A stretch of DNA of 41,494 nucleotides, taken from UHGV virus genome UHGV-1357485. The stretch is one strand, 5' to 3'. Of the stretch, positions 1,829-41,494 are shown piece after piece (within the stretch, counting starts at the first letter, position 1; each line of letters opens with the position of its first letter). A program made the position numbers and the translations under genes. The notes below the pieces were generated by a model. That model saw only the letters and a list, made by a program, of their open reading frames with translations. It did not search any database and was not told where the DNA came from. Source of the stretch: a virus.

Positions 1829-3124
1829 TCACGCGGTCTGGTTAGGCAGACCAACACCAATTGCCTCTGGCCGTACAGCACATGCTGAATACCACACAGC
1901 AATACGGCACTTACCAGACAGAGTATTGATATCACCCTGCGTTGCGAAGATGCCGTTAACACCAATACCAGGAATGCTGAAGGAAGACGTTTTCATGCCA
2001 GCAAACAGTTCATGGGTTACCGGAATCGGCTGAGACAGCAGGCGGATTGAGTCATCAGCCCAGAACACGTTAGCGGTGGTTGTTGCCACGTTCAGAACGT
2101 TTACCGTAGTGGAATCAGCAAGAGAGGTGTTTACGTTAGCGTAAGCCTTCTCTTCTTTTGTCAGTGAAGAGTCATCAAGCGCAATCGGCTTCGGCGTGAT
2201 TTCGATGTGAGTACTATCGATCACACGGGTGATTGAGAAAGTCGCATCATCAGTCAGCACATTCTTCGCCATCTGAGACAGGAATTTCACACCAGTGAAG
2301 CTGATTTTGTCGCCGCGCTTAAATCCGGTGGTGGAGGATACGGTCACCGTTGCAACACGGTTGTCGACGTTCTCTTTGTTACCATCGGTATCAAGGGTGT
2401 ATGCCTGCGGCTTAAACTTCTGCGCACCAGAAACTGTTACACCAGTAGCGGTTGACTTGGTAACAGCCGGAAGTTTCGGTGAGCGAAGAATTTCATCAAA
2501 GCCAGCAATCTGACGCTGAATGGTACCGTTGCGATACGCTTCTTCAGGAACGCGCCCGAAGATGTCACCATCTACCAGGTTGCGGCCTGCTTTGCGGTAA
2601 TCGTCAGGGTTCAGGAAGTAACTGATGCCCATATCGCGGTTTAGCTCACGGGAGAACATCAGGCGCTCTGCATCAGACACAAAATCCCAGCCAGACAGGC
2701 CAGTAGATGGACCAATTGCGCGGGTATCGTGAACAACAAGTGAGCCCATTTCGGTTGCCTGTTTGGCAATTGCTGACTCAATGTTATTCGCCAGTTTTTT
2801 GGCGGATGCCTGGATGCGGCGACGGTAAGAACGCTCATCACGCAGGTCATCTGCACGAAGCTCGAAGAAATCGTTATCCGGATCACCCATGTTGCATTTC
2901 ACGGAGAGTTCCAGAATCCCAGTAGCTTTGCCAGTTAAATCCCAGCCAGTCTGAGTTGGCGCTTCCTGCTCAACAGGCATCCACACGGTGTTGCTTGAAC
3001 GCTGCATGGATTCTGCCGGAGGGGTGTATTTTGTCACTTTGGACGCCATTGGCGTCAGGTTCTGGACGGTTTCGATGATTTCATCCAGAGCATACGTGAC
3101 CAGTTGACCTTCATTTAATGCCAT
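1829..3124 (-). CDS. major capsid (coat) protein, P22 gp5-like (431 aa)
   Basis: Begins MALNEGQ... and matches recalled P22 coat protein along its length; 430-431 aa. Confidence 0.9.
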
Positions 3125-4035
3125 TATCGAATTCCTTTATTCAGTTGCGCCTTGAGCTTGCGGTACGTCTCTACATCCCCTTTGTTTGCTGCCGCTTCCA
3201 TCTGCTTTTCAATCGCAGAGATATTTGCAGCAACAGCGTGTCCCTGAATGGGTTCATCAGGTAGCGGGGCTTCTGAAACAGGTTTGGCTCGAGGCTTGAG
3301 AGTTAAACGTTCTGACAGTCGAGTGAGTTCAATCAGCGCGGATTGCCCGTCCATCGCCAGCAACTGGCGTGTTTTCTCAGGATTAGCACCAAGGTGATAC
3401 ATGAGTGCAGCGGATTTCTCCGGGAAGAGGCGCATGATGTCGGCACCGACTGCTGGCGGCACCAGTTGCATGAATGCGTCCTCTTTCTCCTGATAGTCAG
3501 GGATATTGAGCTTTTCCGCTGCGTCGTAGTGCTTACGGGCTGCCTCGACGTATTGCGCTGATTGCTGGGTGAACTCCTGAGTTTTGCGGCCCTGCTCGGC
3601 GACAGCCTGGCTTCGTGCGTCCATAGCCTTGATCTGCCATTCACTGTTTGCCTGCTGGAAGGCAGCCAGTGCGCGGCTCTGGTCATAGTCGTACTTAGCC
3701 AGTGCGTCTTCGGAAAGATAATCGTTAGGGTCTGGTTGTTTTGGTAACTCAGGGTTCACCCGCAGGTGCTCCGGCAACTCCCCTCGCTTAACCGCTTCCA
3801 TCTGCTGCTCAAGCTCACGCTGGCGTTTGCGTTCGATGCGGCGACGGGCAAATTCAGCATTAGTTGCCGGGTCTTGTTTTGGTTTCTCATCGTCTTTCAG
3901 GACAATCTCGAAGCCTTCTTCCTGACCTGCGTTGTCGTTGGCATTATCGACAACTAAGCCATCAGCAGATGCCGCTGCATGATTGCCGGGCAGGGTTAAT
4001 TCTTCAGAAGCCTGAATGTCGGTGGTTTGGTCCAT
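3124..4035 (-). CDS. scaffolding protein, P22 gp8-like (303 aa)
   Basis: Position between portal and coat; charged helical protein; same length as P22 gp8; stop/start overlap with coat gene. Confidence 0.75.
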
Positions 4036-17999: not shown

Positions 18000-18716
18000 A
18001 TGGAAAATAAAAAATCACTGACGACAGAACAGCTCGAAGACGCTAAGCGGCTTAAGGCTTTGTATGAGTCAAAAAAGAAAGAATTGGGAATAACCCAATA
18101 CTCAATCGCTGATGAACTGGGTATCACCCAAGGAGCGGTAGGGCATTATCTTAATGGCAGAAACGCGCTAAACGTTGAGGTTGCATCTGGTTTTGCACGA
18201 TTGTTGCAAGTCTCAATTGCTGATTTTAGCCAGTCAATTGCTGCCAAGGTTGCAGAACAGGCAGAAAGCCTTAAGAGCGATGCCAACGTAAGGTATGCAG
18301 GGGAATACAGAGCAGGAAAGAGGTATCCGGTGTTAAGCAGTATCCAGGCTGGCTCGTGGTGTGAAGCATGCGAACCATACACCATTAAAGACATAGATGT
18401 TTGGCTTGAGTCTGACGCGCATATTCAAGGTAATGCGTTTTGGCTTAAAGTGGAAGGTGATTCAATGACGGCACCGGTTGGGTTAAGCATTCCAGAGGGA
18501 ACATTCGTTCTTTTCGATACCGGAAGGGAGGCGATCAACGGCAGCTTGGTCATAGCAAAACTTTCTGACTCTAACGAAGCAACATTCAAGAAGCTGATAA
18601 TCGACGGCGGAAATAAATACCTCAAGGGACTTAATCCTGCATGGCCTCTCGTGCCAATCAATGGAAACTGCAAGATTATAGGCGTTGCAATTGAGACAAA
18701 ACTAAGGCTGGTTTGA
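18000..18716 (+). CDS. cI: CI repressor (lambda-type, 238 aa)
   Basis: N-terminal HTH and C-terminal LexA/S24-type autocleavage domain (FWLKVEGDSM...FKKL...). Confidence 0.9.
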   Translation: MENKKSLTTEQLEDAKRLKALYESKKKELGITQYSIADELGITQGAVGHYLNGRNALNVEVASGFARLLQVSIADFSQSIAAKVAEQAESLKSDANVRYAGEYRAGKRYPVLSSIQAGSWCEACEPYTIKDIDVWLESDAHIQGNAFWLKVEGDSMTAPVGLSIPEGTFVLFDTGREAINGSLVIAKLSDSNEATFKKLIIDGGNKYLKGLNPAWPLVPINGNCKIIGVAIETKLRLV

Positions 18717-19629: not shown

Positions 19630-19749
19630 ATGTTAGACATCATGACCAACCCAATTCTCGGTGGTTTAGTTACCACATTCGCCATCTGCTTCGGTTTCAC
19701 TATCTGGTCTGAAGTAGATGACTGGATGTGGGAACGCAAAAACAAATAA
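19630..19749 (+). CDS. small hydrophobic peptide (39 aa) in the pL leader
   Basis: GAGGA-N7-ATG; hand-translated MLDIMTNPILGGLVTTFAICFGFTIWSEVDDWMWERKNK; one predicted TM. Confidence 0.3.
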   Translation: MLDIMTNPILGGLVTTFAICFGFTIWSEVDDWMWERKNK

Positions 19750-19789
19750 TCATCGACACACAAGGATGTGCACCTACCCGGAGGTCAAC

Positions 19790-20062
19790 ATGACAGTAGT
19801 CATTACATATCTGGCTGACGATAACGCCAGATATCGCCGCAGAGCACGCAGACAGGCTCAACGTGAACAGGCAATGCAAGAACAGCGACTGGCGCGAAAG
19901 ATTGCGCTAAAGCTCTCTGGTTGCGTCAGAGCAGATAAAGCAGCATCACTCGGAAGCCTTCGCTGCAAGAAGGCAGATGAATGCAGTGGAAGTATTTGCC
20001 TGCCAAACGTAGCCATTTACGCGGCAGGCTACCGGAAATCAAAACAACTGACGGCGAGATGA
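19790..20062 (+). CDS. N: antiterminator N (P22 gene 24-like, 90 aa)
   Basis: GGAGG RBS; N-terminal Arg-rich motif NARYRRRARRQAQ; C-terminus ...LPNVAIYAAGYRKSKQLTAR resembles recalled P22 gp24. Confidence 0.75.
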   Translation: MTVVITYLADDNARYRRRARRQAQREQAMQEQRLARKIALKLSGCVRADKAASLGSLRCKKADECSGSICLPNVAIYAAGYRKSKQLTAR

Positions 20063-20078
20063 TAAATTAATTTGCTAA

Positions 20079-20660
20079 TTACTTGTTTTTGCCATGCTTA
20101 TCCTGAGCGATAAGTTCATCCATAAGACTGTCTTTCTTCCCAGCAAACCTAATGTAGCACTCATTTCTATAGCGTTCCGGGATAACAAAACGGTCGATTT
20201 CAGGATATCCAGTAGCAGAAGGTACCCGAATAAGAAGCCCTTTTTCGAGCAATGAGATTGCTTCAGGGCTTCCCTTTTCTGTCTTTAGCTGGTTATTAGC
20301 GGCTACAGCGAATGCCAAATACGCTCTTTCTCCAAGAGTTAACGAATCAAACAAATCTTGCACGTATTTCTCTTCTTTAGATTTGCGCTTCTGAGCAGCG
20401 AATATCTCAATTCTTTCAGTCACAGCGTGATAAGCGGAATTAACAACGCCGTTAAGCACATAGCTAACGCAAAACAACAGGATGTAATACATCCAGTAAT
20501 GAGGAAGGATTTCTGGATTATGCAGGTTTATCCATTCTTTTACGCTTACAGGCATAACAATAATCAATATGATCAGGATGATTAGCATATGAATCAACTG
20601 TTTAAGTGTCATTCCTTGCAGGAAAAAATGCATTAGTTCCTGCCACCATGAGTTGTTCAT
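20079..20660 (-). CDS. sieB: superinfection exclusion protein SieB-like (193 aa)
   Basis: Adjacent to N on the opposite strand as in lambda/P22; N-terminal TM segment; AT-rich. Confidence 0.55.
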   Translation of the reverse strand: MNNSWWQELMHFFLQGMTLKQLIHMLIILIILIIVMPVSVKEWINLHNPEILPHYWMYYILLFCVSYVLNGVVNSAYHAVTERIEIFAAQKRKSKEEKYVQDLFDSLTLGERAYLAFAVAANNQLKTEKGSPEAISLLEKGLLIRVPSATGYPEIDRFVIPERYRNECYIRFAGKKDSLMDELIAQDKHGKNK

Positions 20661-23428: not shown

Positions 23429-23722
23429 ATGCCAGCGCCTCTGTATGGTGCGGATGACCCGCGCTGCTGTTCCGGCAATTCCGTATCGGAGGTGCTGGAT
23501 AAATTCAGAAAAAACTACGACAGGATAATGTCTCTACCGCAGGAAACGAAAGATGAAAAGGAATTTCGCCACTGTATATGGCTTGCAGAGAAAGAAGAAC
23601 GCGAGCGAATTTACCAGACATCAATCCGACCATTCCGCAAAGCCACATATACCCACTTCCCTGAAATTGACCCGCGCCTGCGTAATTACCGCTCACGCTA
23701 TGGCGCTATCAGTAATGACTGA
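23429..23722 (+). CDS. hypothetical protein (97 aa)
   Basis: ORF track. Confidence 0.45.
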
Positions 23723-23732
23723 GGAATTTACC

Positions 23733-23900
23733 ATGAGAGGACTTGCATACAATCCCGGCATTCTTCCGGCAGAAATGATTATTCGCCAACGCGCAAAGCC
23801 AATGCCATCGAGAGAGGAATTACTTAAGAGAAAGAGTTTCGGTTCTGTTAATGACAACAAATATCTGAATGCGATGTTGCGCAAAGGAGGCAACCAGTGA
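23733..23900 (+). CDS. hypothetical small protein (55 aa)
   Basis: GAGGA RBS before ATG 23733; track ORF extended upstream from an alternative start. Confidence 0.35.
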
Positions 23901-24463
23901 GCAAGATTGACTATCAGGTACTGCGTGCTAAGGCAGAAAAAGCAACGTGTGGCGAGTGGTCGCTCGAATATGGAGAGAGCCGATTTGATGGTGATGATGC
24001 GCTAATTCATCGTGAAGTTGCTGGATATATTCCCATTTGCAAAATTGAAGGAGCGCATCCAGAAAGCGGTTTCGATGAAGATTTCCAAATGGAACAGCAG
24101 GCCAATGCTGAATTCATCGCCGCAGCCAATCCGGCTACCGTCTTGGCGCTGCTTGGCGAGCTGGAAGCAGCAAAAAAGCGCATAGCAGAACTGGAAGCCG
24201 AACCTGTAAGCCAAACTTGCAAGTTGAACGATCCATCGGGCAACTCTCCGGTAACTCCGGGTGGTTGGATAAGCTGTAGTGATCGAATGCCGGAAGACAC
24301 CAAAATGTTACTGGCATTTAGTCAAGGTGAAATCGTGGCCGCATATTGGAACTGGGTTGTAAATCCAATTGATTACAAAAAATATAGAGCTTTCACGTAT
24401 TTATCAGGAAATATCTTGGATGACGTAACTCACTGGATGCCGCTACCAGAGCCTCCACTTTGA
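23897..24463 (+). CDS. Ead/Ea22-like protein with C-terminal DUF551-like region (188 aa)
   Basis: C-terminal ...[10 protein letters not shown] motif common in lambdoid early-region genes; ATGA overlap with upstream ORF. Confidence 0.55.
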
Positions 24464-24559
24464 AAGCGAAGCTTATACATATCTTTTACATCAGCAATCT
24501 ATTGTTAATCTCCAATCAATGTTACGTTGTCATCTCACTCATGCTTTGGAGGTAGTGAT

Positions 24560-24682
24560 ATGTCTTGTCCAAAATGCGGTTCTGGAAATATTGCAAAAGA
24601 AAAAACAATGCGTGGATGGTCTGGTGATTATGTGTGCTGCGATTGCGGATACAACGACTCGGTAATGACTCCAACTTATTGA
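24560..24682 (+). pseudogene. zinc-ribbon small protein gene truncated by IS1 insertion
   Basis: GGAGG RBS, CPKCG...CCDCG; reading frame enters IS1 at 24661; original 3' end (about 59 aa total) resumes after the IS at 25438-25517. Confidence 0.55.
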
Positions 24683-25179
24683 TAGTGTTTTATGTTCAGA
24701 TAATGCCCGATGACTTTGTCATGCAGCTCCACCGATTTTGAGAACGACAGCGACTTCCGTCCCAGCCGTGCCAGGTGCTGCCTCAGATTCAGGTTATGCC
24801 GCTCAATTCGCTGCGTATATCGCTTGCTGATTACGTGCAGCTTTCCCTTCAGGCGGGATTCATACAGCGGCCAGCCATCCGTCATCCATATCACCACGTC
24901 AAAGGGTGACAGCAGGCTCATAAGACGCCCCAGCGTCGCCATAGTGCGTTCACCGAATACGTGCGCAACAACCGTCTTCCGGAGACTGTCATACGCGTAA
25001 AACAGCCAGCGCTGGCGCGATTTAGCCCCGACATAGCCCCACTGTTCGTCCATTTCCGCGCAGACGATGACGTCACTGCCCGGCTGTATGCGCGAGGTTA
25101 CCGACTGCGGCCTGAGTTTTTTAAGTGACGTAAAATCGTGTTGAGGCCAACGCCCATAATGCGGGCAGTTGCCCGGCAT
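24676..25179 (-). CDS. insB: IS1 transposase InsB (167 aa)
   Basis: Matches recalled IS1 InsB. Confidence 0.9.
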
Positions 25180-25373
25180 CCAACGCCATTCATGGCCATA
25201 TCAATGATTTTCTGGTGCGTACCGGGTTGAGAAGCGGTGTAAGTGAACTGCAGTTGCCATGTTTTACGGCAGTGAGAGCAGAGATAGCGCTGATGTCCGG
25301 CGGTGCTTTTGCCGTTACGCACCACCCCGTCAGTAGCTGAACAGGAGGGACAGCTGATAGAAACAGAAGCCAC
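25098..25373 (-). CDS. insA: IS1 protein InsA (91 aa)
   Basis: Matches recalled IS1 InsA (zinc-finger/HTH). Confidence 0.9.
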
Positions 25374-25579
25374 TGGAGCACCTCAAAAACACCATCATAC
25401 ACTAAATCAGTAAGTTGGCAGCATCACCCAACGACTCTAAAGACGCATTTGGAGAGCGTGGTAAAAACGAGTTTGTCAAAATTAATAAAGATCGCGAAGG
25501 CAACGGAAAAAGCTAATTTATTTATTCATATATGAAAACAATGTAACCAATATTCGAATTGAAGAACTGAAAGAACACC

Positions 25580-25603
25580 AAGCCGCCTGATGGCGGTTTT
25601 TTA
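25580..25603 (+). terminator. intrinsic terminator
   Basis: GCCGCC-TGAT-GGCGG hairpin followed by TTTTTTATT. Confidence 0.5.
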
Positions 25604-25616
25604 TTGGAGACAAGAA

Positions 25617-25961
25617 ATGTCAGATTTGGCTATGAAGGTTTTGAAATGGCAATCAACTGGCGATGTCGGTATCAGTAGCGCAACTCTTGCCTCAATCGCA
25701 TGTGGGCTGAAAAAGAATATCTATGGTCATCACTTCGGCGCTCCACATGACGCAGCCGATTTCAGACGATGCGTTGCACTTGTTGAGCAGATTCCAGAAA
25801 TCAGAGATTCATTCGACAAGGTTGCAAAGCGCGTTCCGGCATTCAAAGGCATCCTCACCGAATGGGATTCCCTCGTTGCTCTGTTGAAGTCTGAAATGAA
25901 GATACACGGAAACAAAGCACCAGAGACTTACAGAAGAATTAGCGAGTTACGCAAGGACTAA
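25617..25961 (+). CDS. hypothetical protein (114 aa) flanked by terminators
   Basis: GGAGA RBS before ATG 25617; no family recognised. Confidence 0.5.
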   Translation: MSDLAMKVLKWQSTGDVGISSATLASIACGLKKNIYGHHFGAPHDAADFRRCVALVEQIPEIRDSFDKVAKRVPAFKGILTEWDSLVALLKSEMKIHGNKAPETYRRISELRKD

Positions 25962-26018
25962 CCACAGCCTCACACTCGATGAGGCATTTTCATTTATCAA
26001 GATATCCAGACCTACCAT

Positions 26019-26042
26019 CGCCGCATCAATGCGGTTTTTTTA
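26019..26042 (+). terminator. intrinsic terminator
   Basis: CCGCAT-CA-ATGCGG hairpin followed by TTTTTTTATT. Confidence 0.45.
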
Positions 26043-26086
26043 TTGCCTGATTTGCAGGTTCGATTCCCTATTCGGAGATAGCACTC

Positions 26087-26287
26087 ATGCAACACGAACT
26101 ACAGCCTGATTCACTGGTTGATTTGAAATTCATCATGGCCGATACTGGCTTCGGTAAAACCTTCATCTATGACCGGATTAAGTCCGGGGACCTGCCTAAA
26201 GCCAAAGTTATCCACGGGCGAGCAAGATGGTTATATCGTGACCATTGTGAATTCAAAAATAAGCTCTTAAGCCGCGCCAATGGGTAA
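26087..26287 (+). CDS. AlpA-family excisionase / transcriptional regulator (66 aa)
   Basis: Small HTH protein of AlpA type immediately upstream of the P4-type integrase; GGAGA RBS. Confidence 0.7.
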   Translation: MQHELQPDSLVDLKFIMADTGFGKTFIYDRIKSGDLPKAKVIHGRARWLYRDHCEFKNKLLSRANG

Positions 26288-26536
26288 AATAGCGGGTAAA
26301 ATATTTCTCACATCTAAAAAACATCATTCCAATCAATCCCCTGCCGCGCCAAGTAGATGTCTGCAGGGGACACCATTTATCAGTTCGCCACCATCCGTGC
26401 CAGTCCGCAAAATCCCCTGAATATCAAGCCTTCCGTATATTCACGGTTCGTCATGGTTCGCGTCAGATCGTTGACAGCCGCACACCATGACGGGTAAAAA
26501 GTGGATAAAATAATTTTACCCACCGGATTTTTACCC
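26281..26536. repeat. GGGTAAAA direct and inverted repeats around the att core (candidate arm-type Int/Xis binding sites)
   Basis: At least three direct GGGTAAAA copies and two inverted TTTTACCC copies in the xis-int interval. Confidence 0.4.
26361..26375 (+). other. attP core candidate: 15-nt match to the 3' end of tRNA-Arg(CCU) argW (CTGCAGGGGACACCA)
   Basis: Identity to the recalled argW 3' terminus, about 160 bp upstream of an IntS-like integrase in the same orientation. Confidence 0.5.
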
Positions 26537-27694
26537 ATGCTCACCGTTAAGCAGATTGAAGCAGCAAAGCCGAAAGAAAAACCATACCGCCTTCTCGATG
26601 GTAATGGCCTGTACCTTTATGTCCCTGTGTCAGGGAAAAAGGTATGGCAGCTTCGCTACAAGATTGACGGTAAGGAGAAAATCCTGACCGTCGGAAAATA
26701 TCCGCTTATGACTTTGCAGGAGGCAAGGGATAAAGCATGGACCGCGAGGAAAGACATCTCGGTTGGCATCGATCCAGTAAAAGCGAAAAAGGCTTCGTCT
26801 AACAACAATTCCTTTAGCGCCATTTACAAGGAATGGTACGAGCACAAGAAGCAAGTCTGGTCAGTAGGCTATGCAAATGAACTTGCAAAAATGTTTGATG
26901 ACGACATTTTACCCATCATCGGCGGCCTTGAAATTCAGGATATTGAGCCGATGCAACTTCTTGAAGTAATCCGCAGATTTGAAGATCGCGGTGCAATGGA
27001 GCGAGCCAACAAAGCCCGCAGAAGATGCGGCGAGGTTTTCCGTTACGCTATTGTCACTGGTAGGGCTAAATATAACCCGGCACCTGACCTTGCTGACGCC
27101 ATGAAGGGATACCGCAAGAAAAACTTCCCGTTTCTTCCTGCAGACCAGATCCCGGCATTTAACAAAGCACTGGCAACATTTTCAGGAAGCATCGTATCGC
27201 TCATTGCGACCAAAGTTTTACGCTACACAGCCCTCAGAACAAAAGAGCTTCGTTCCATGCTATGGAAGAACGTCGATTTTGAAAACAGGATTATCACCAT
27301 CGACGCCAATGTGATGAAGGGACGCAAAATTCATGTGGTTCCTATGTCAGACCAGGTAGTTGAACTTCTCACTACGCTAAGCTCAATCACTAAACCAGTG
27401 TCAGAGTTTGTTTTTGCCGGGCGCAACGATAAGAAGAAGCCAATCTGCGAGAACGCGGTATTACTTGTGATCAAACAAATCGGCTATGAGGGTCTGGAAA
27501 GCGGTCACGGATTCAGGCATGAATTCAGCACGATTATGAACGAGAACGAATGGCCTGCTGATGCTATTGAAGTGCAACTGGCACATGCCAACGGCGGTTC
27601 TGTGCGTGGAATTTACAACCACGCTCAGTATCTTGATAAGCGCAGAGAAATGATGCACTGGTGGGCGGACTGGCTTGATGGGAAGGTGGAGTAG
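26537..27694 (+). CDS. int: tyrosine integrase, P4/IntS-type (385 aa from ATG 26537)
   Basis: N-terminal arm-binding region MLTVKQIEAAKPKEKPYRLLDGNGLYL...; C-terminal catalytic ...HGFRH...; resembles recalled E. coli IntS. Confidence 0.9.
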   Translation: MLTVKQIEAAKPKEKPYRLLDGNGLYLYVPVSGKKVWQLRYKIDGKEKILTVGKYPLMTLQEARDKAWTARKDISVGIDPVKAKKASSNNNSFSAIYKEWYEHKKQVWSVGYANELAKMFDDDILPIIGGLEIQDIEPMQLLEVIRRFEDRGAMERANKARRRCGEVFRYAIVTGRAKYNPAPDLADAMKGYRKKNFPFLPADQIPAFNKALATFSGSIVSLIATKVLRYTALRTKELRSMLWKNVDFENRIITIDANVMKGRKIHVVPMSDQVVELLTTLSSITKPVSEFVFAGRNDKKKPICENAVLLVIKQIGYEGLESGHGFRHEFSTIMNENEWPADAIEVQLAHANGGSVRGIYNHAQYLDKRREMMHWWADWLDGKVE

Positions 27695-27867: not shown

Positions 27868-28995
27868 CTATAATTGATTGCCTTCTATTTTTTCAACTCG
27901 AGTGGTTGAAACATCATTCTTAAATCCACTCCACCATTTTCTTAGCTTATTGTTTATTGGCTTTTCAAAAAACAAATACATCATTATTGATATAAATAAT
28001 GAAGAAAACAGAGCCATTACTATAAATTTAATTACACTTATAGCACCAAGACCAGAAACATTAAAGAACTTGCTCAATGTACTGATTACTATAGTGTGGA
28101 CCAAGTAAAATGAAAAAGAAGCATCACCTAAAAGTATCATAACTTTATTTGATATTATTTTTGAAATAATACCACCATTAAACGAAAACACTAATATTGA
28201 AAAGGCCATTGATGGTATAAAAAGCGCATCATACTGTAATCCATTGCCATTTTGACTTTTTGCCACCATATAGACAGACATTAGGATAAAGACTACAGAT
28301 GATATTTCAGCAAATGATAGAACTAAATATGACGGCTTTGACTTAAACTCAAAATATAGTTTACACAATATAATACCGATTAAAAAGTCAGGCAACCTAT
28401 TAAAAGGGTTTATGTAAAAGAACCAGTGAGAGAACGCATCACTAATTTCCCCATAGCTTGCCATGTAAATAATATTAATTAAAATTAACGCAGCAAACAA
28501 AGCGAGCATTCTTTTTCGCGCAAAAATTATAAAACAAAAAGAAACATAAAAGAACATTTCTACAGAAATGCTCCAGGATACTGCATTGAATGAGAAATAG
28601 TCTTCCTTATCTACTGAGTAAGACTGAATTAATAGTGCATTTTTTATTATAGACAATATATTTGGTGAGAATCCACCACCTAATATTGAGTGTCCAACTA
28701 TAAACACAGTCAAGCAAAGCAAATGTACTGGATATATTCTAAATACTCGATGCGCAAGAAAATCAACAAAACTTCCGTTGCCATTACGCAATGAAATAGT
28801 AAAACTATATGTTAATATAAACCCAGATAAAATAAAAAAGAAAGTAACACCAGAATACCCAAGTTTAAAATATTCAAATGATGAAGCAAAATCTCTATTA
28901 CTTGAATTTTGTATTACCGCCATGTGGCTAAAAAACACCCCAAGGGCTGCAAATGCCCTTAGGGATGTCAGGCTATTTAGTCTTTCTGCGCGCAT
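27868..28995 (-). CDS. acyltransferase-3 family membrane protein, probable O-antigen acetyltransferase (lysogenic conversion)
   Basis: N-terminal ...RLNSLTSLRAFAALGVFFSHM... and about ten TM segments; AT-rich; between tailspike and att/int where Sf6 carries oac and P22 carries gtrABC. Confidence 0.75.
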   Translation of the reverse strand: MRAERLNSLTSLRAFAALGVFFSHMAVIQNSSNRDFASSFEYFKLGYSGVTFFFILSGFILTYSFTISLRNGNGSFVDFLAHRVFRIYPVHLLCLTVFIVGHSILGGGFSPNILSIIKNALLIQSYSVDKEDYFSFNAVSWSISVEMFFYVSFCFIIFARKRMLALFAALILINIIYMASYGEISDAFSHWFFYINPFNRLPDFLIGIILCKLYFEFKSKPSYLVLSFAEISSVVFILMSVYMVAKSQNGNGLQYDALFIPSMAFSILVFSFNGGIISKIISNKVMILLGDASFSFYLVHTIVISTLSKFFNVSGLGAISVIKFIVMALFSSLFISIMMYLFFEKPINNKLRKWWSGFKNDVSTTRVEKIEGNQL

Positions 28996-29104
28996 GATAC
29001 ACCTATGTTTTAATGCACAAAAATGCAACAAAAGATTGATGATACCATAAGCAACAGAAAAATCACATGATCACTTACTCACGTTCAACTTGTACCATCA
29101 GAAT

Positions 29105-31645
29105 CTAAATTATCTGCGTCACTGACAATGCTTTCTTTAACACCACTCCTCCGCTCGTTGTTGCTCCCTTTGAGTACTCAAAGGAGATATTGGCTGAAAT
29201 GCCAAGATTCTCATCAGGACAATACCACCAAATTCCAATAGGGAGCACAGATGCCTTGTCATAACTGACAGTGCGATCATACGACGACTGGTACCCATTG
29301 AAGTCATACCATTTAAACCCAGTAATTGCGTTGCCAGCAATCATGCAATCAGTGCTCATAACTACACCAAACGCATTCTCAATATTAGATGCAACTAATA
29401 TGGCACTCATTGCGATATTCCTAAAGCTACATGACGTCACAGAGTATCCATTTGTATTTGCGTTTATAACTCCTATTTCTCCAAGGAAAGTCGTTGTCCT
29501 TATAGATCCATTAAAAAAAGATGTTGATTTTGTCCCTCTAAGACACACTCCCACATCAGACTCAAACGCGCTATCAGATATATCGATATACGTTGAACTT
29601 ACTGATGGATTATTCTTATAAAAGCTAACTCCGTAATTTAGATTATTGAAATTACAACTATTAACCCTTACAGATGCTACTCTTGCATCATATAAATAAA
29701 GGCCTGCCGTCATCCCTTCAAGGTGTGTGTCGTTTAATGGAAATACTGCATTATCCCCAGCCTCGTTAGGATCATTCATTAATGTTTTAGGGTTTGTGAA
29801 TTTATTTTTAATTATCGATGTAAACTCATCACAAAAAAAGTCATGTGATGCGCTATTAATTACCTTAAACCCTGAGAATCCGAATGGCTTCCCACCAGAG
29901 ATTATTGCCAAACAAAATGCTTGCGCCCCACCGCGTATTCTATATTGATTTGATTTTGATTCAAATTTAAAATTGCCTTGTAATGTTGAGTTGGTGATAC
30001 AACTAAAAGAGTTACCTATGTATGATACGTTATTATTATATGATGACGTTATGCTATAGCTGTTTACTTTATTTCCAGATATAAGAACATTATCACAAAA
30101 AAATTGAGCACATATCCCTGATTTTGATGTAACAACATTATCAGACATTATGCTATGAATAACCATTGAGTGAAAAGTTATGCCCCAATGACCATGGCTA
30201 TACGAAGTTGATATTAATGGATCGTTTATTATATTTCCAGTGCAGTTAACATAACAAACTTGCCTATATACTCCTATTGTTGAATCATTCAAACCAAGAG
30301 TTGAGCAAATGTTATCTTTAATAGAGCAAACAGAACTTGATGTGGCATAGCTAAACATAGCTTCTGGGATATTCCCTGTTAATCTATTCCTCTCGAATCT
30401 ACCAGAATAACAATAATATCGCATCTCAACATGGACATTATGGAAGTTACAACCAATCACTTCTGGCTCGATCTGAGACAAAAGCATGATTCTTCTTAGA
30501 GCATTGCTACTGCTTTTCATCGTCACACCATCTTTAATTTTGAATGGCGTAAGGTTACCTGTTGGGAACCCAAATTTCGCAGTCCCAGCCACCTGATTTA
30601 CCACCAGAGGTTGCGCCAAAATAGCCTTATTGGTAGTTGTATGACCTATAATTTTTGTTACCTGAATGAACTGAGATTGGTATCCATTCAAGTTAAGTGT
30701 AAGTGCCAACCCATCTATGCTGTCAGCAGGTGTGGTGGATTTTTCCGCTTCATCAATACAGAACGGATATCCATTATCAATGACGACATATTGCCCTGTG
30801 CGATCTACACCATCGAGATATACCTCAGAGTGCCCTGCAGATGCAGGCTGAGAAAAAACTGTCATAGTTGGGAAGTCATATGGCTCAACCCTAAAATGAT
30901 TACCCAATGTTATTGTGCCACGACCATATATACCTTTTGCCCCGGCTGGCGCTGTATAATCTGTTGTGGTGGTAAGGTCAGCTCCTGTAATGTTTACTTC
31001 TTCTCCGAAGTTAAACGCTGCCGTCAGTGCCTGCTCGGTTGTTACAAACCTATTGGTGTAGTTAAGGATATGGTTTAAATCATATCCGTTAAGATTCCCT
31101 ACAGACTTCCAGTTTGAATCTGGTGAACTACCAGGAGGGACAGTTAATGGAACTGACAGATCACCAGTATAAATGTAATACCACCCAGTTGATGAATAGA
31201 ATAGTGCCTGATATTTACTTGTTATCGTTGCACCAGAAGCAAAGGATACATTTTGCAGGCGTTTATAAACATTAAATCTAAAATTTTCATTAGCGTATAA
31301 AGAAAACTGATCTGGGTCGTACCCTAAAACATTAGGGAAGTAGAACTGCTGCATGCCGTAAGAATCGTATACCGCCATAGAATGGCCTTTCACAGTTACG
31401 AATTTGGCAATCTGCCCGTTATATACAGGATACCCGCCAGAGTTAATGATGATTGGCTGTGCAACAGGAACGTGAGAACCATCTTCGTTCTCCACATAAA
31501 CCTGAATCTGGTTTTCAGGATTTACTGGGTCAGTATCAATTTTACCGATATAAATTTTGCCATTGGCTACGGCTTTAAAAGAACGCGCCATAGTGAAGAG
31601 TTGCGAAGGCATCGACACGATCACATTGGCTGTAATGTCTGTCAT
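29105..31645 (-). CDS. tailspike protein: P22 gp9-like head-binding N-terminus plus divergent beta-helix receptor-binding/depolymerase region (846 aa)
   Basis: N-terminus [13 protein letters not shown]...[23 protein letters not shown]... resembles P22 tailspike; distal two-thirds AT-rich, Asn/Ser/Cys-rich. Confidence 0.85.
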
Positions 31646-39885: not shown

Positions 39886-40586
39886 CAGTCAATCAGCCCA
39901 TGTAATCTAAGTGCCGTTTCAAGCGCCAGAATACGCTGCCGCGCCTGCTGCAAACCTGTAGCGAGAGTTGCGACTTCGGATTGTGTGTACGTAGTGCCGA
40001 CAGTGTATGACTGGTTAGCGTTGAATGAGCCGAGGAGTGCCGTTCCGGTTGCTGCTGTCCATCCTGTCTGACGAGCACCGATAACCTTGGTGCCGCCGAC
40101 TGAATAGGATGTTGTTACGTTGAGGGGGGATGCCAGCGATTGTGTTGCTGTGGCTGTTTTCGATACGTAATCGTCCTGCAATGCAGAAATATTTCCTTCA
40201 GCCTCCGTCACTCTACCATCGAGAGCACTGACATCAGCCTGCAAGGTGACTATTTCACCTTCAGCCGTGGTTAGTCTGACATCCAGCGACGCGATTGCAT
40301 TGGTATTTGCAGTAATACGGATTTCATGGTCGTCTACGTCGATGCGGAGCTGACGAATTCTTTCTTCGTGATCGACCAGAATCACATCCTGCTCATCGTT
40401 CCTGACTTGTGCGTCATAAGCGCCCTGTCCGGCCTCGTTGGCCTTGTTCGCCACGTTACCAACATCAGTACCCTGTGCGATAACGTACAGCAGATATGAC
40501 TGCGAGAAGATATTGCGTGGAAGGATTGATGTATCGAGCCGCGTCGCCTGAACAATAACAGGGGTGTTGAGATTCGAATCAGCCAT
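39885..40586 (-). CDS. tail needle protein, P22 gp26-like (233 aa)
   Basis: [25 protein letters not shown]... then trimeric coiled-coil heptads; GGAGG RBS; same length as P22 gp26. Confidence 0.8.
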
Positions 40587-41112
40587 TAACATGCCTCCAT
40601 GCCTTGCCATTTACAATTCTACTAACCTTTGAATTGTGAATTCCAAATAATTTAGCAACTTCACACTGAGGAAATCCATTGGCAACCATTTCTTTTATCT
40701 TTATGACATCATCATTAGATATTTTAGAATTACCATTCCTTTCTCCTTTTACATTACCTCTCGACTCCAATCCATATGAGTGTGAGATATTTCCTGATGG
40801 AGTAACCCATTCAAGATTTAGATAGTTATTATTATATTTATCACCATCTATATGATTTACCTGTAACCCTTCAGCAAATCCACCAACAAAGTGAGATGCA
40901 ACAAGCTTATGTATTAGTATGTTCTTTTTTACGCCATCCTTATATAAACACACATACTTATATCCATTTACGTTATGATTATGCTTCAGCCACCTACCCT
41001 TAATAAGACGTCCCCTCAAATTTACTCTTGAATGCGAGTAAACTCTACCATCATTAGTGATGGCGTACAGTCCTTCATATCCTTCGATATCTTTTGCGTT
41101 TTCACTTAACAT
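40579..41112 (-). CDS. HNH homing endonuclease (177 aa)
   Basis: N-terminal ...[15 protein letters not shown]... (NUMOD4-like), HNH region ...[10 protein letters not shown]..., C-terminal HTH-like; AT-rich; AAGGAG RBS; inserted between gp10 and gp26. Confidence 0.75.
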
Positions 41113-41133: not shown

Positions 41134-41494
41134 TTATGTTACACGAATAGAAAGGCCTGATAATGTGACAGGACCTTTTGCAATAACCCTGAATTTAAAT
41201 CCAATGAGGCGTCTAACTCGACCAACCTTTCGCCATAAAACGCGATTGTCATATACAAATGGTTTTTGTAATACGACCATTTGCTCACGACCGTAACTAA
41301 TTCCATCTGTAGTGGCTGATATAAATATTTTATCTATTCTATCACACACGCCGCCCGATGTTTCTAATTCAAGGTCATTTATTAAAGCGTTATCTGCCTT
41401 TATTAGAGGGGAATATAAAATATGCTCTTGTTGTTTTTCGTATTGTGAAGATATATCGAATTGCAATTTCCCGGTCACCGATTCCAGTTTGTCG
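41134..41494 (-). CDS. P22 gp10-like protein, 3' portion (C-terminal about 120 aa); ORF open to window end
   Basis: Minus-strand ORF running off the window end with 1 nt of a split codon; joins in frame with positions 2-1 to give 1,419 nt (472 codons plus stop). Confidence 0.7.
   Translation of the reverse strand, partial: DKLESVTGKLQFDISSQYEKQQEHILYSPLIKADNALINDLELETSGGVCDRIDKIFISATTDGISYGREQMVVLQKPFVYDNRVLWRKVGRVRRLIGFKFRVIAKGPVTLSGLSIRVT

Follow-up and report, generated by a model that had tools for sequence, protein, structure and literature searches.

The closest described counterpart of the locus analysed here is found in phage HK620, where the gene hkaD is annotated as "Eag protein, similar to eaG of P22". 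Homologues under this name constitute a narrow family in E. coli and Salmonella phages. The presence of IS1 in phage genomes is not novel either, and has been known for P1, SfIV and others. We found no literature report of IS1 in HK620/P22-like phages, and none on the sequencing run SRR5677833, the source of a second assembly described below. In the virus genome investigated here (41,494 nt in all, hereafter the window) these two well-known components are combined, as an IS1 element interrupts eaG. The insertion is real, but nothing about it is out of the ordinary, and its kind is well known. At a probability of roughly 90%, we consider that an intact IS1 from an enterobacterial replicon, most likely of E. 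coli, transposed recently into eaG of a Lederbergvirus phage, where it is a near-neutral passenger.

All parts of a complete element could be located (Table 1). The terminal inverted repeats, GGTAATGACTCCAACTTATTGAT at the right end and, on the minus strand, GGTGATGCTGCCAACTTACTGAT at the left end, are 23 nt long and imperfect (78% complementary according to the repeat finder), and the outer sequence of the element extends from GGTAATGACTCC at 24661 to GGCAGCATCACC, which ends at 25428. The length of about 768 bp, the imperfect repeats of about 23 bp and the GGT(A/G)ATG start are those of the IS1 family. A search of the whole window with the IS1-end pattern returned two matches, namely the two ends, with none expected. 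The coding part is just as characteristic. The Pfam domains of InsA are Zn_ribbon_InsA and HTH_Tnp_IS1, the insB' frame encodes the DDE domain, and a -1 shift at the A6C motif reconstructs a fused InsAB' protein of 232 aa; the 9-bp target duplication completes the set of IS1-family features. The left-end repeat carries an inward promoter-like site for insA (25421->25394). Both coding parts and ends are intact and the same as in widespread copies.

Table 1. Features of the interrupted eaG locus and of the neighbouring early-left region, in window coordinates
Feature	Position	Strand	Remarks
Repressor	18000-18716		early-left region
N-like antiterminator	19718-20062	+	
ead/DUF551 gene	23897-24463	+	
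Truncated eaG (hkaD homologue) ORF	24560..24682	+	34 native codons MSCPKCGSGNIAKEKTMRGWSGDYVCCDCGYNDS, 6 IS1 codons VMTPTY, TGA inside IS1 end
9-bp target-site duplication, left copy	24652-24660	.	CAACGACTC
Complete IS1, 768 bp	24661-25428	-	transposase genes antisense to phage early-left operon
IS1 right-end inverted repeat, IRR type	24661-24683	.	GGTAATGAC...; repeat finder, end-pattern search
insB' frame, DDE_Tnp_IS1	25179..24676	-	PF03400 E 5.9e-78
A6C (AAAAAAC) programmed -1 frameshift motif	25122..25116	-	insA/insB' junction
insA, 91 aa, zinc ribbon + HTH	25373..25098	-	PF03811 E 1.3e-21, PF12759 E 4.7e-31
IS1 left-end inverted repeat, IRL type	25406-25428		GGTGATGCT... on - strand
9-bp target-site duplication, right copy	25429-25437	.	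CAACGACTC
Orphaned eaG 3' remnant + stop	25438..25516	+	KDAFGERGKNEFVKINKDREGNGKS; no in-frame start of its own except TTG inside IS end
Terminator-like hairpin + T-run after eaG	25580-25599	+	-13.4 kcal/mol, z -2.6
114-aa gene, phrog_1229	25617..25961	+	absent from HK620
pI, HK620 'phage integration' promoter with cII site	26042-26080	+	exact match; downstream of IS1
xis-like gene	26087..26287	+	homologue of HK620 hkaC (annotated TorI-like)
attP core	26361-26376	.	exact match to HK620 annotation, intact between xis and int
HK620-annotated excision promoter	26471-26520		one mismatch; downstream of IS1
Tyrosine integrase ORF	26501..27694	+	

The duplicated 9-mer directly abuts both ends of the element. 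In the 41.5 kb of the window, both strands included, it occurs only at these two positions, whereas the mean for shuffled sequence is 0.19. To reconstruct the uninterrupted site in silico, we removed IS1 together with one 9-mer and joined the halves. The resulting sequence aligns without gaps to phage HZ41 over 723 nt and to HK620 over 399 nt, in both cases at 99.0% identity, which is the mark of a clean transposition footprint. The same is seen when HK620 is aligned to the window directly. Positions 2911-3140 of HK620 correspond to 24431-24660 of the window and positions 3132-3309 to 25429-25606, so that the two pieces share in HK620 precisely those 9 nt of which the window has two copies and the relatives one. 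Moreover, 118 IMG/VR contigs contain a 26-mer covering the site in its uninterrupted form, hence the intact gene is the common state. The initial annotation had described a complete 768-bp IS1 with insA, insB and both inverted repeats, flanked by identical 9-mers, and had proposed a comparison with IS1-free relatives. On re-inspection both ends and the flanking repeat are in place, and the relatives HZ41 and HK620 carry an empty site that is precise to the base. As for the choice of target, IS1 prefers AT-rich sequences (Zerbib et al. 1985, as cited in PMC9330008). The GC content is 53% within the element and 36-39% in the 200-nt flanks, and such a GC island in AT-rich surroundings fits this preference.

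Might the element simply be an assembly artefact, with host IS1 reads stitched into a phage contig? Contamination of lysates with host DNA is common, and IS1 is abundant in E. coli hosts, occupying a median of 11 places per genome. The junction is also absent from the collections that we searched: its left 31-mer had no hits in IMG/VR or in the GTDB species representatives, no INPHARED phage record covers the IS1 junctions, and the same eaG::IS1 junction was not found in 5426 complete E. coli genomes. However, a perfect 9-bp duplication at both ends is not what a chimera would give, nor would it leave a base-precise empty site. In addition, the exact 40-aa truncated product led us to the Logan contig SRR5677833_834 (2697 bp), on which the same product is called. 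This contig is 100% identical to positions 23444-26140 of the window and crosses the whole IS1, so that a different assembler reproduced both junctions, with the qualification that this separate assembly may share the window's own reads and its independence as a sample is not assured. A short-read contig running through a 768-bp insertion sequence points to a sample in which IS1 had one context only, for example purified phage DNA. We find an assembly artefact barely credible.

Candidates for the same insertion elsewhere were rejected. In two E. coli records with about 99% coverage the prophage is degraded and its Eag gene is intact, with IS1 lying upstream of that gene, which is not the same insertion, and PhiR11_1_star, which seemed to share the right junction, has its IS1 in the integrase of a lambda-like phage. 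In E. coli FDAARGOS_1277 (NZ_CP070103.1, 2992837-3002055), the DUF551 gene of a degraded prophage remnant at ybhB/ybhC is cut short by an IS1, and the Eag gene that directly follows it is intact. Here IS1 has separately struck the corresponding accessory region in a related element.

What the insertion does to the gene itself is straightforward. Joining the two halves restores an uninterrupted ORF of 59 codons with the product MSCPKCGSGNIAKEKTMRGWSGDYVCCDCGYNDSKDAFGERGKNEFVKINKDREGNGKS, which matches phrog_2945 (E 2.4e-30) and by sequence belongs to the Eag family, with homologues of that name at 83-97% identity. IS1 entered after codon 34. The present product has 40 residues and ends in ...NDSVMTPTY, the C-terminal tail of 25 residues having been exchanged for six residues encoded by the element. 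The 25 codons of the tail and the stop are still present beyond the IS. The truncation of a small CxxC...CxxC gene with a surviving 3' end had been recognised before, and the start of the span at 24560 was correct; its end was put at 25517, one base beyond the correct 25516. To call the gene disrupted overstates the extent of the damage, since IS1 entered beyond both Cys pairs (C3/C6 and C26-C29), which are kept in the truncated protein; the tail alone is lost. Across the aligned family the ribbon at the N-terminus is conserved, and the tail occurs in two alternative versions. If the phage is viable, the C-terminal tail of Eag would be dispensable. It is also worth pointing out that many Eag homologues in the databases have a frameshift, lack part of the N-terminus or run on into the sequence downstream, which suggests that eaG is often degraded or poorly called in databases.

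The zinc-ribbon character of Eag is a prediction that draws on the two Cys pairs, on profile scores below threshold and on a match to Sf6 gp20. The Lar_restr_allev profile (PF14354) scores 23.2 bits with a gathering cut-off of 28.6, and the profile of the HVO_2753 zinc-binding pocket scores 21.2 with a cut-off of 33.2. All hits of Eag in the Pfam and NCBIfam profile search were below threshold, and a PDB sequence search gave only marginal zinc-finger matches (E >= 0.04, i.e. at least 0.04). Some close homologues carry a precomputed PF14354 hit. A relationship of Eag to the Lar restriction alleviation family is thus possible but not established.

Over its full 768 bp the IS1 copy shows 100% identity to many E. 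coli copies, on chromosomes as well as on plasmids, that are annotated as "IS1-like element IS1A family". One position separates it from K-12 IS1A, and ten separate it from IS1D. Because the copy is undiverged and fully coding, the evidence points to a recent insertion. The insertion would date a recent stay of the phage in an enterobacterial host that carries IS1. Passage through an E. coli/Shigella host, as suggested by the initial annotation, is plausible in view of the 100% matches in E. coli and the E. coli phages among the relatives, but it cannot be diagnosed from the element, as plasmids of Klebsiella, Salmonella, Enterobacter, Shigella and Citrobacter carry copies of at least 99% identity too. 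IS1 alone does not name the host. The likeliest donor is E. coli, since the closest relatives of the phage backbone, HZ41, IME10 and HK620, are E. coli phages.

The window itself is a closed P22-like genome. A frame of 476 aa resembling gene 10 (minus strand) spans 41134-41494 joined to 1-1070, from which we conclude that the genome is complete, circularly closed and opened inside a gene. Its left 24.6 kb matches HZ41, IME10 and HK620 at 96-97% identity over 43-67% of that part. A P22-type virion module is combined with lambdoid early regions, as in Lederbergvirus (P22-like) phages, and P22 tailspike head-binding, gp4, Erf, Abc2, SieB, Arc and Ant domains are present. The order ead/DUF551 - eaG - (114 aa) - xis - attP - int is that of HK620 except for the 114-aa gene, and erf and abc2 also belong to the operon context upstream of eaG::IS1 on the plus strand. 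The integrase probably starts some codons downstream of 26501, because the HK620 protein has 385 aa.

These features bear on another explanation, in which IS1 entered a prophage that was defective or had long been resident, and the window represents a decaying element, not a working phage. IS insertions do accumulate in cryptic prophages, and the degraded prophage at ybhC in one E. coli genome has an IS1 beside its Eag gene. On the other hand, xis, the attP core and int are contiguous in the window, which indicates the non-integrated form, the ends of the window close within the gene-10-like ORF, and the ORFs for head, tail, lysis and replication form a complete P22-like set. The lack of divergence in IS1 is likewise at odds with long decay, as would be the single IS1 context, as in purified phage DNA, suggested by the short-read contig across the element. 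We regard a decaying prophage as highly improbable.

Several other genes of this genome deserve mention. Terminator-like hairpins (25580-25599, 25967-25985 and 26020-26035) lie on both sides of the 114-aa gene (region 25607-26030), which has the appearance of a moron-type cassette located between eaG and pI/xis. A homologue of the SieB superinfection-exclusion protein is encoded opposite the early-left operon (20079-20660, minus strand), just after the N-like gene. Adjoining int (27868-31645, minus strand) is a gene for a 387-aa Acyl_transf_3 protein, located where Sf6 has its O-antigen acetylase, oac. Beside it lies a tailspike gene of 846 aa, in which the P22 head-binding domain alone was recognised (residues 1-113). 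Taken together, the two suggest a putative serotype-converting module with an uncharacterised receptor-binding domain. Finally, a 177-aa ORF with NUMOD4 and HNH_3 domains of homing-endonuclease type (40579-41112, minus strand) is located between the gp26-like tail-needle and gp10-like genes. In UPF_BP1 and Dewey, where the match ends near 40588, these two genes abut directly, and the ORF looks like a second, independent insertion of a mobile element in the late operon.

IS1 is polar in both orientations through Rho-dependent termination. Antitermination of the lambda N type reportedly relieves IS polarity, a result said to go back to Adhya, Gottesman and de Crombrugghe in 1974. Given the N-like antiterminator of this phage and such relief of polarity, we infer that transcripts from pL largely read through the element. 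A second route to an effect on downstream genes would be a promoter formed at the edge of IS1. Its ends can donate a -35 element to fusion promoters (Prentki et al. 1986, as cited in PMC9330008), and the downstream-facing end does carry TTGGCA, 8 nt from the tip. The best -10 partner at a spacing of 17 nt is TAAAGA, with three of six positions matched and the final T missing, and the promoter scan of the downstream junction returned no outward-facing promoter-like site. An outward hybrid promoter at this junction was accordingly rejected. Any transcript started in IS1 would also be without nut modification and would meet the 25580-25599 hairpin before reaching the 114-aa gene. The earlier proposal that outward promoter activity of IS1 may affect the 114-aa gene and xis-int thus finds no support in the sequence. 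With no outward promoter, a terminator before the 114-aa gene, and pI as well as the excision promoter located downstream of IS1, we would not expect xis or int to be strongly affected.

The same observations weigh on the idea that the insertion is functionally significant and has been selected, be it for the loss of the Eag tail, for a polar drop in expression of the 114-aa gene, xis and int, or for an outward promoter derived from IS1. Its attractions are the -35-like hexamer just described, the classical polarity of IS1 and the persistence of the insertion in a complete circular genome. The weak -10 and the empty scan argue against the promoter; the hairpin, which would stop transcripts not modified by N, the downstream position of pI and the excision promoter, and the antiterminator, which is expected to suppress IS polarity, argue against an altered expression of the distal genes. 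Furthermore, a single occurrence is no sign of selection. Altogether, we consider selection for such effects very unlikely. One may also picture a fully viable phage as a carrier that takes an active IS1 from host to host, and which could in addition have kept the insertion because the loss of the Eag tail, or the insulation of the distal early-left genes, benefits it; we regard this version as unlikely too.

Returning to recent transposition into a near-neutral position, the most probable course of events may be outlined as follows. A standard IS1 would have moved from a replicon of the enterobacterial host into the eaG/hkaD accessory gene of a temperate P22-like phage, making its usual 9-bp duplication in a locally AT-rich stretch. 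The genome would thereby have gained 777 bp, and the Eag tail would have been swapped for the IS-encoded residues. N-like antitermination would let pL transcripts pass the antisense element in the early-left operon, integrase and excisionase presumably keep their own promoters downstream of it, and IS1 would most likely be a near-neutral passenger in a dispensable gene, with the phage as its vehicle. Consequently, for annotation, the locus should be described as one mobile element and a split eaG pseudogene, not as two small orphan ORFs plus transposase genes. The phage also adds one more to the temperate phages able to carry an intact insertion sequence between cells. A minor point concerns packaging. 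The genome measures 41,494 bp, compared with 38.3-39.6 kb in the closest relatives, and in a headful packager the 777 extra bases eat into the terminal redundancy.

Compared with known systems, the interrupted gene and the interrupting element are both familiar. The DNA of the restored eaG is 99% identical to the region of HK620 hkaD, which likewise has 59 codons and occupies the same place between the ead/DUF551 gene and xis, and the restored product shares 73% identity with the Eag protein of 'Salmonella phage 22'. In contrast to the intact genes of HK620 and P22, eaG of the window is split after codon 34. Sf6 gp20, a Lar-like protein from the equivalent locus, shares 47% identity with Eag over 30 residues. 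Lar-like proteins and Eag both have an N-terminal CxxC...CxC zinc ribbon and both are encoded in the early-left accessory region, but Eag is much shorter. As for the element, IS1A-type copies of E. coli have the same length, 23-nt ends, insA, A6C motif, insB' and 9-bp duplication, and differ only in the site of insertion. The same element, at 98.7-99.9% identity, is found in the genomes of P1, Shigella phage SfIV, GER2 and RCS47. These, however, represent other phage lineages and other loci, none of them eaG, and the IS1 of P1 has long been fixed.
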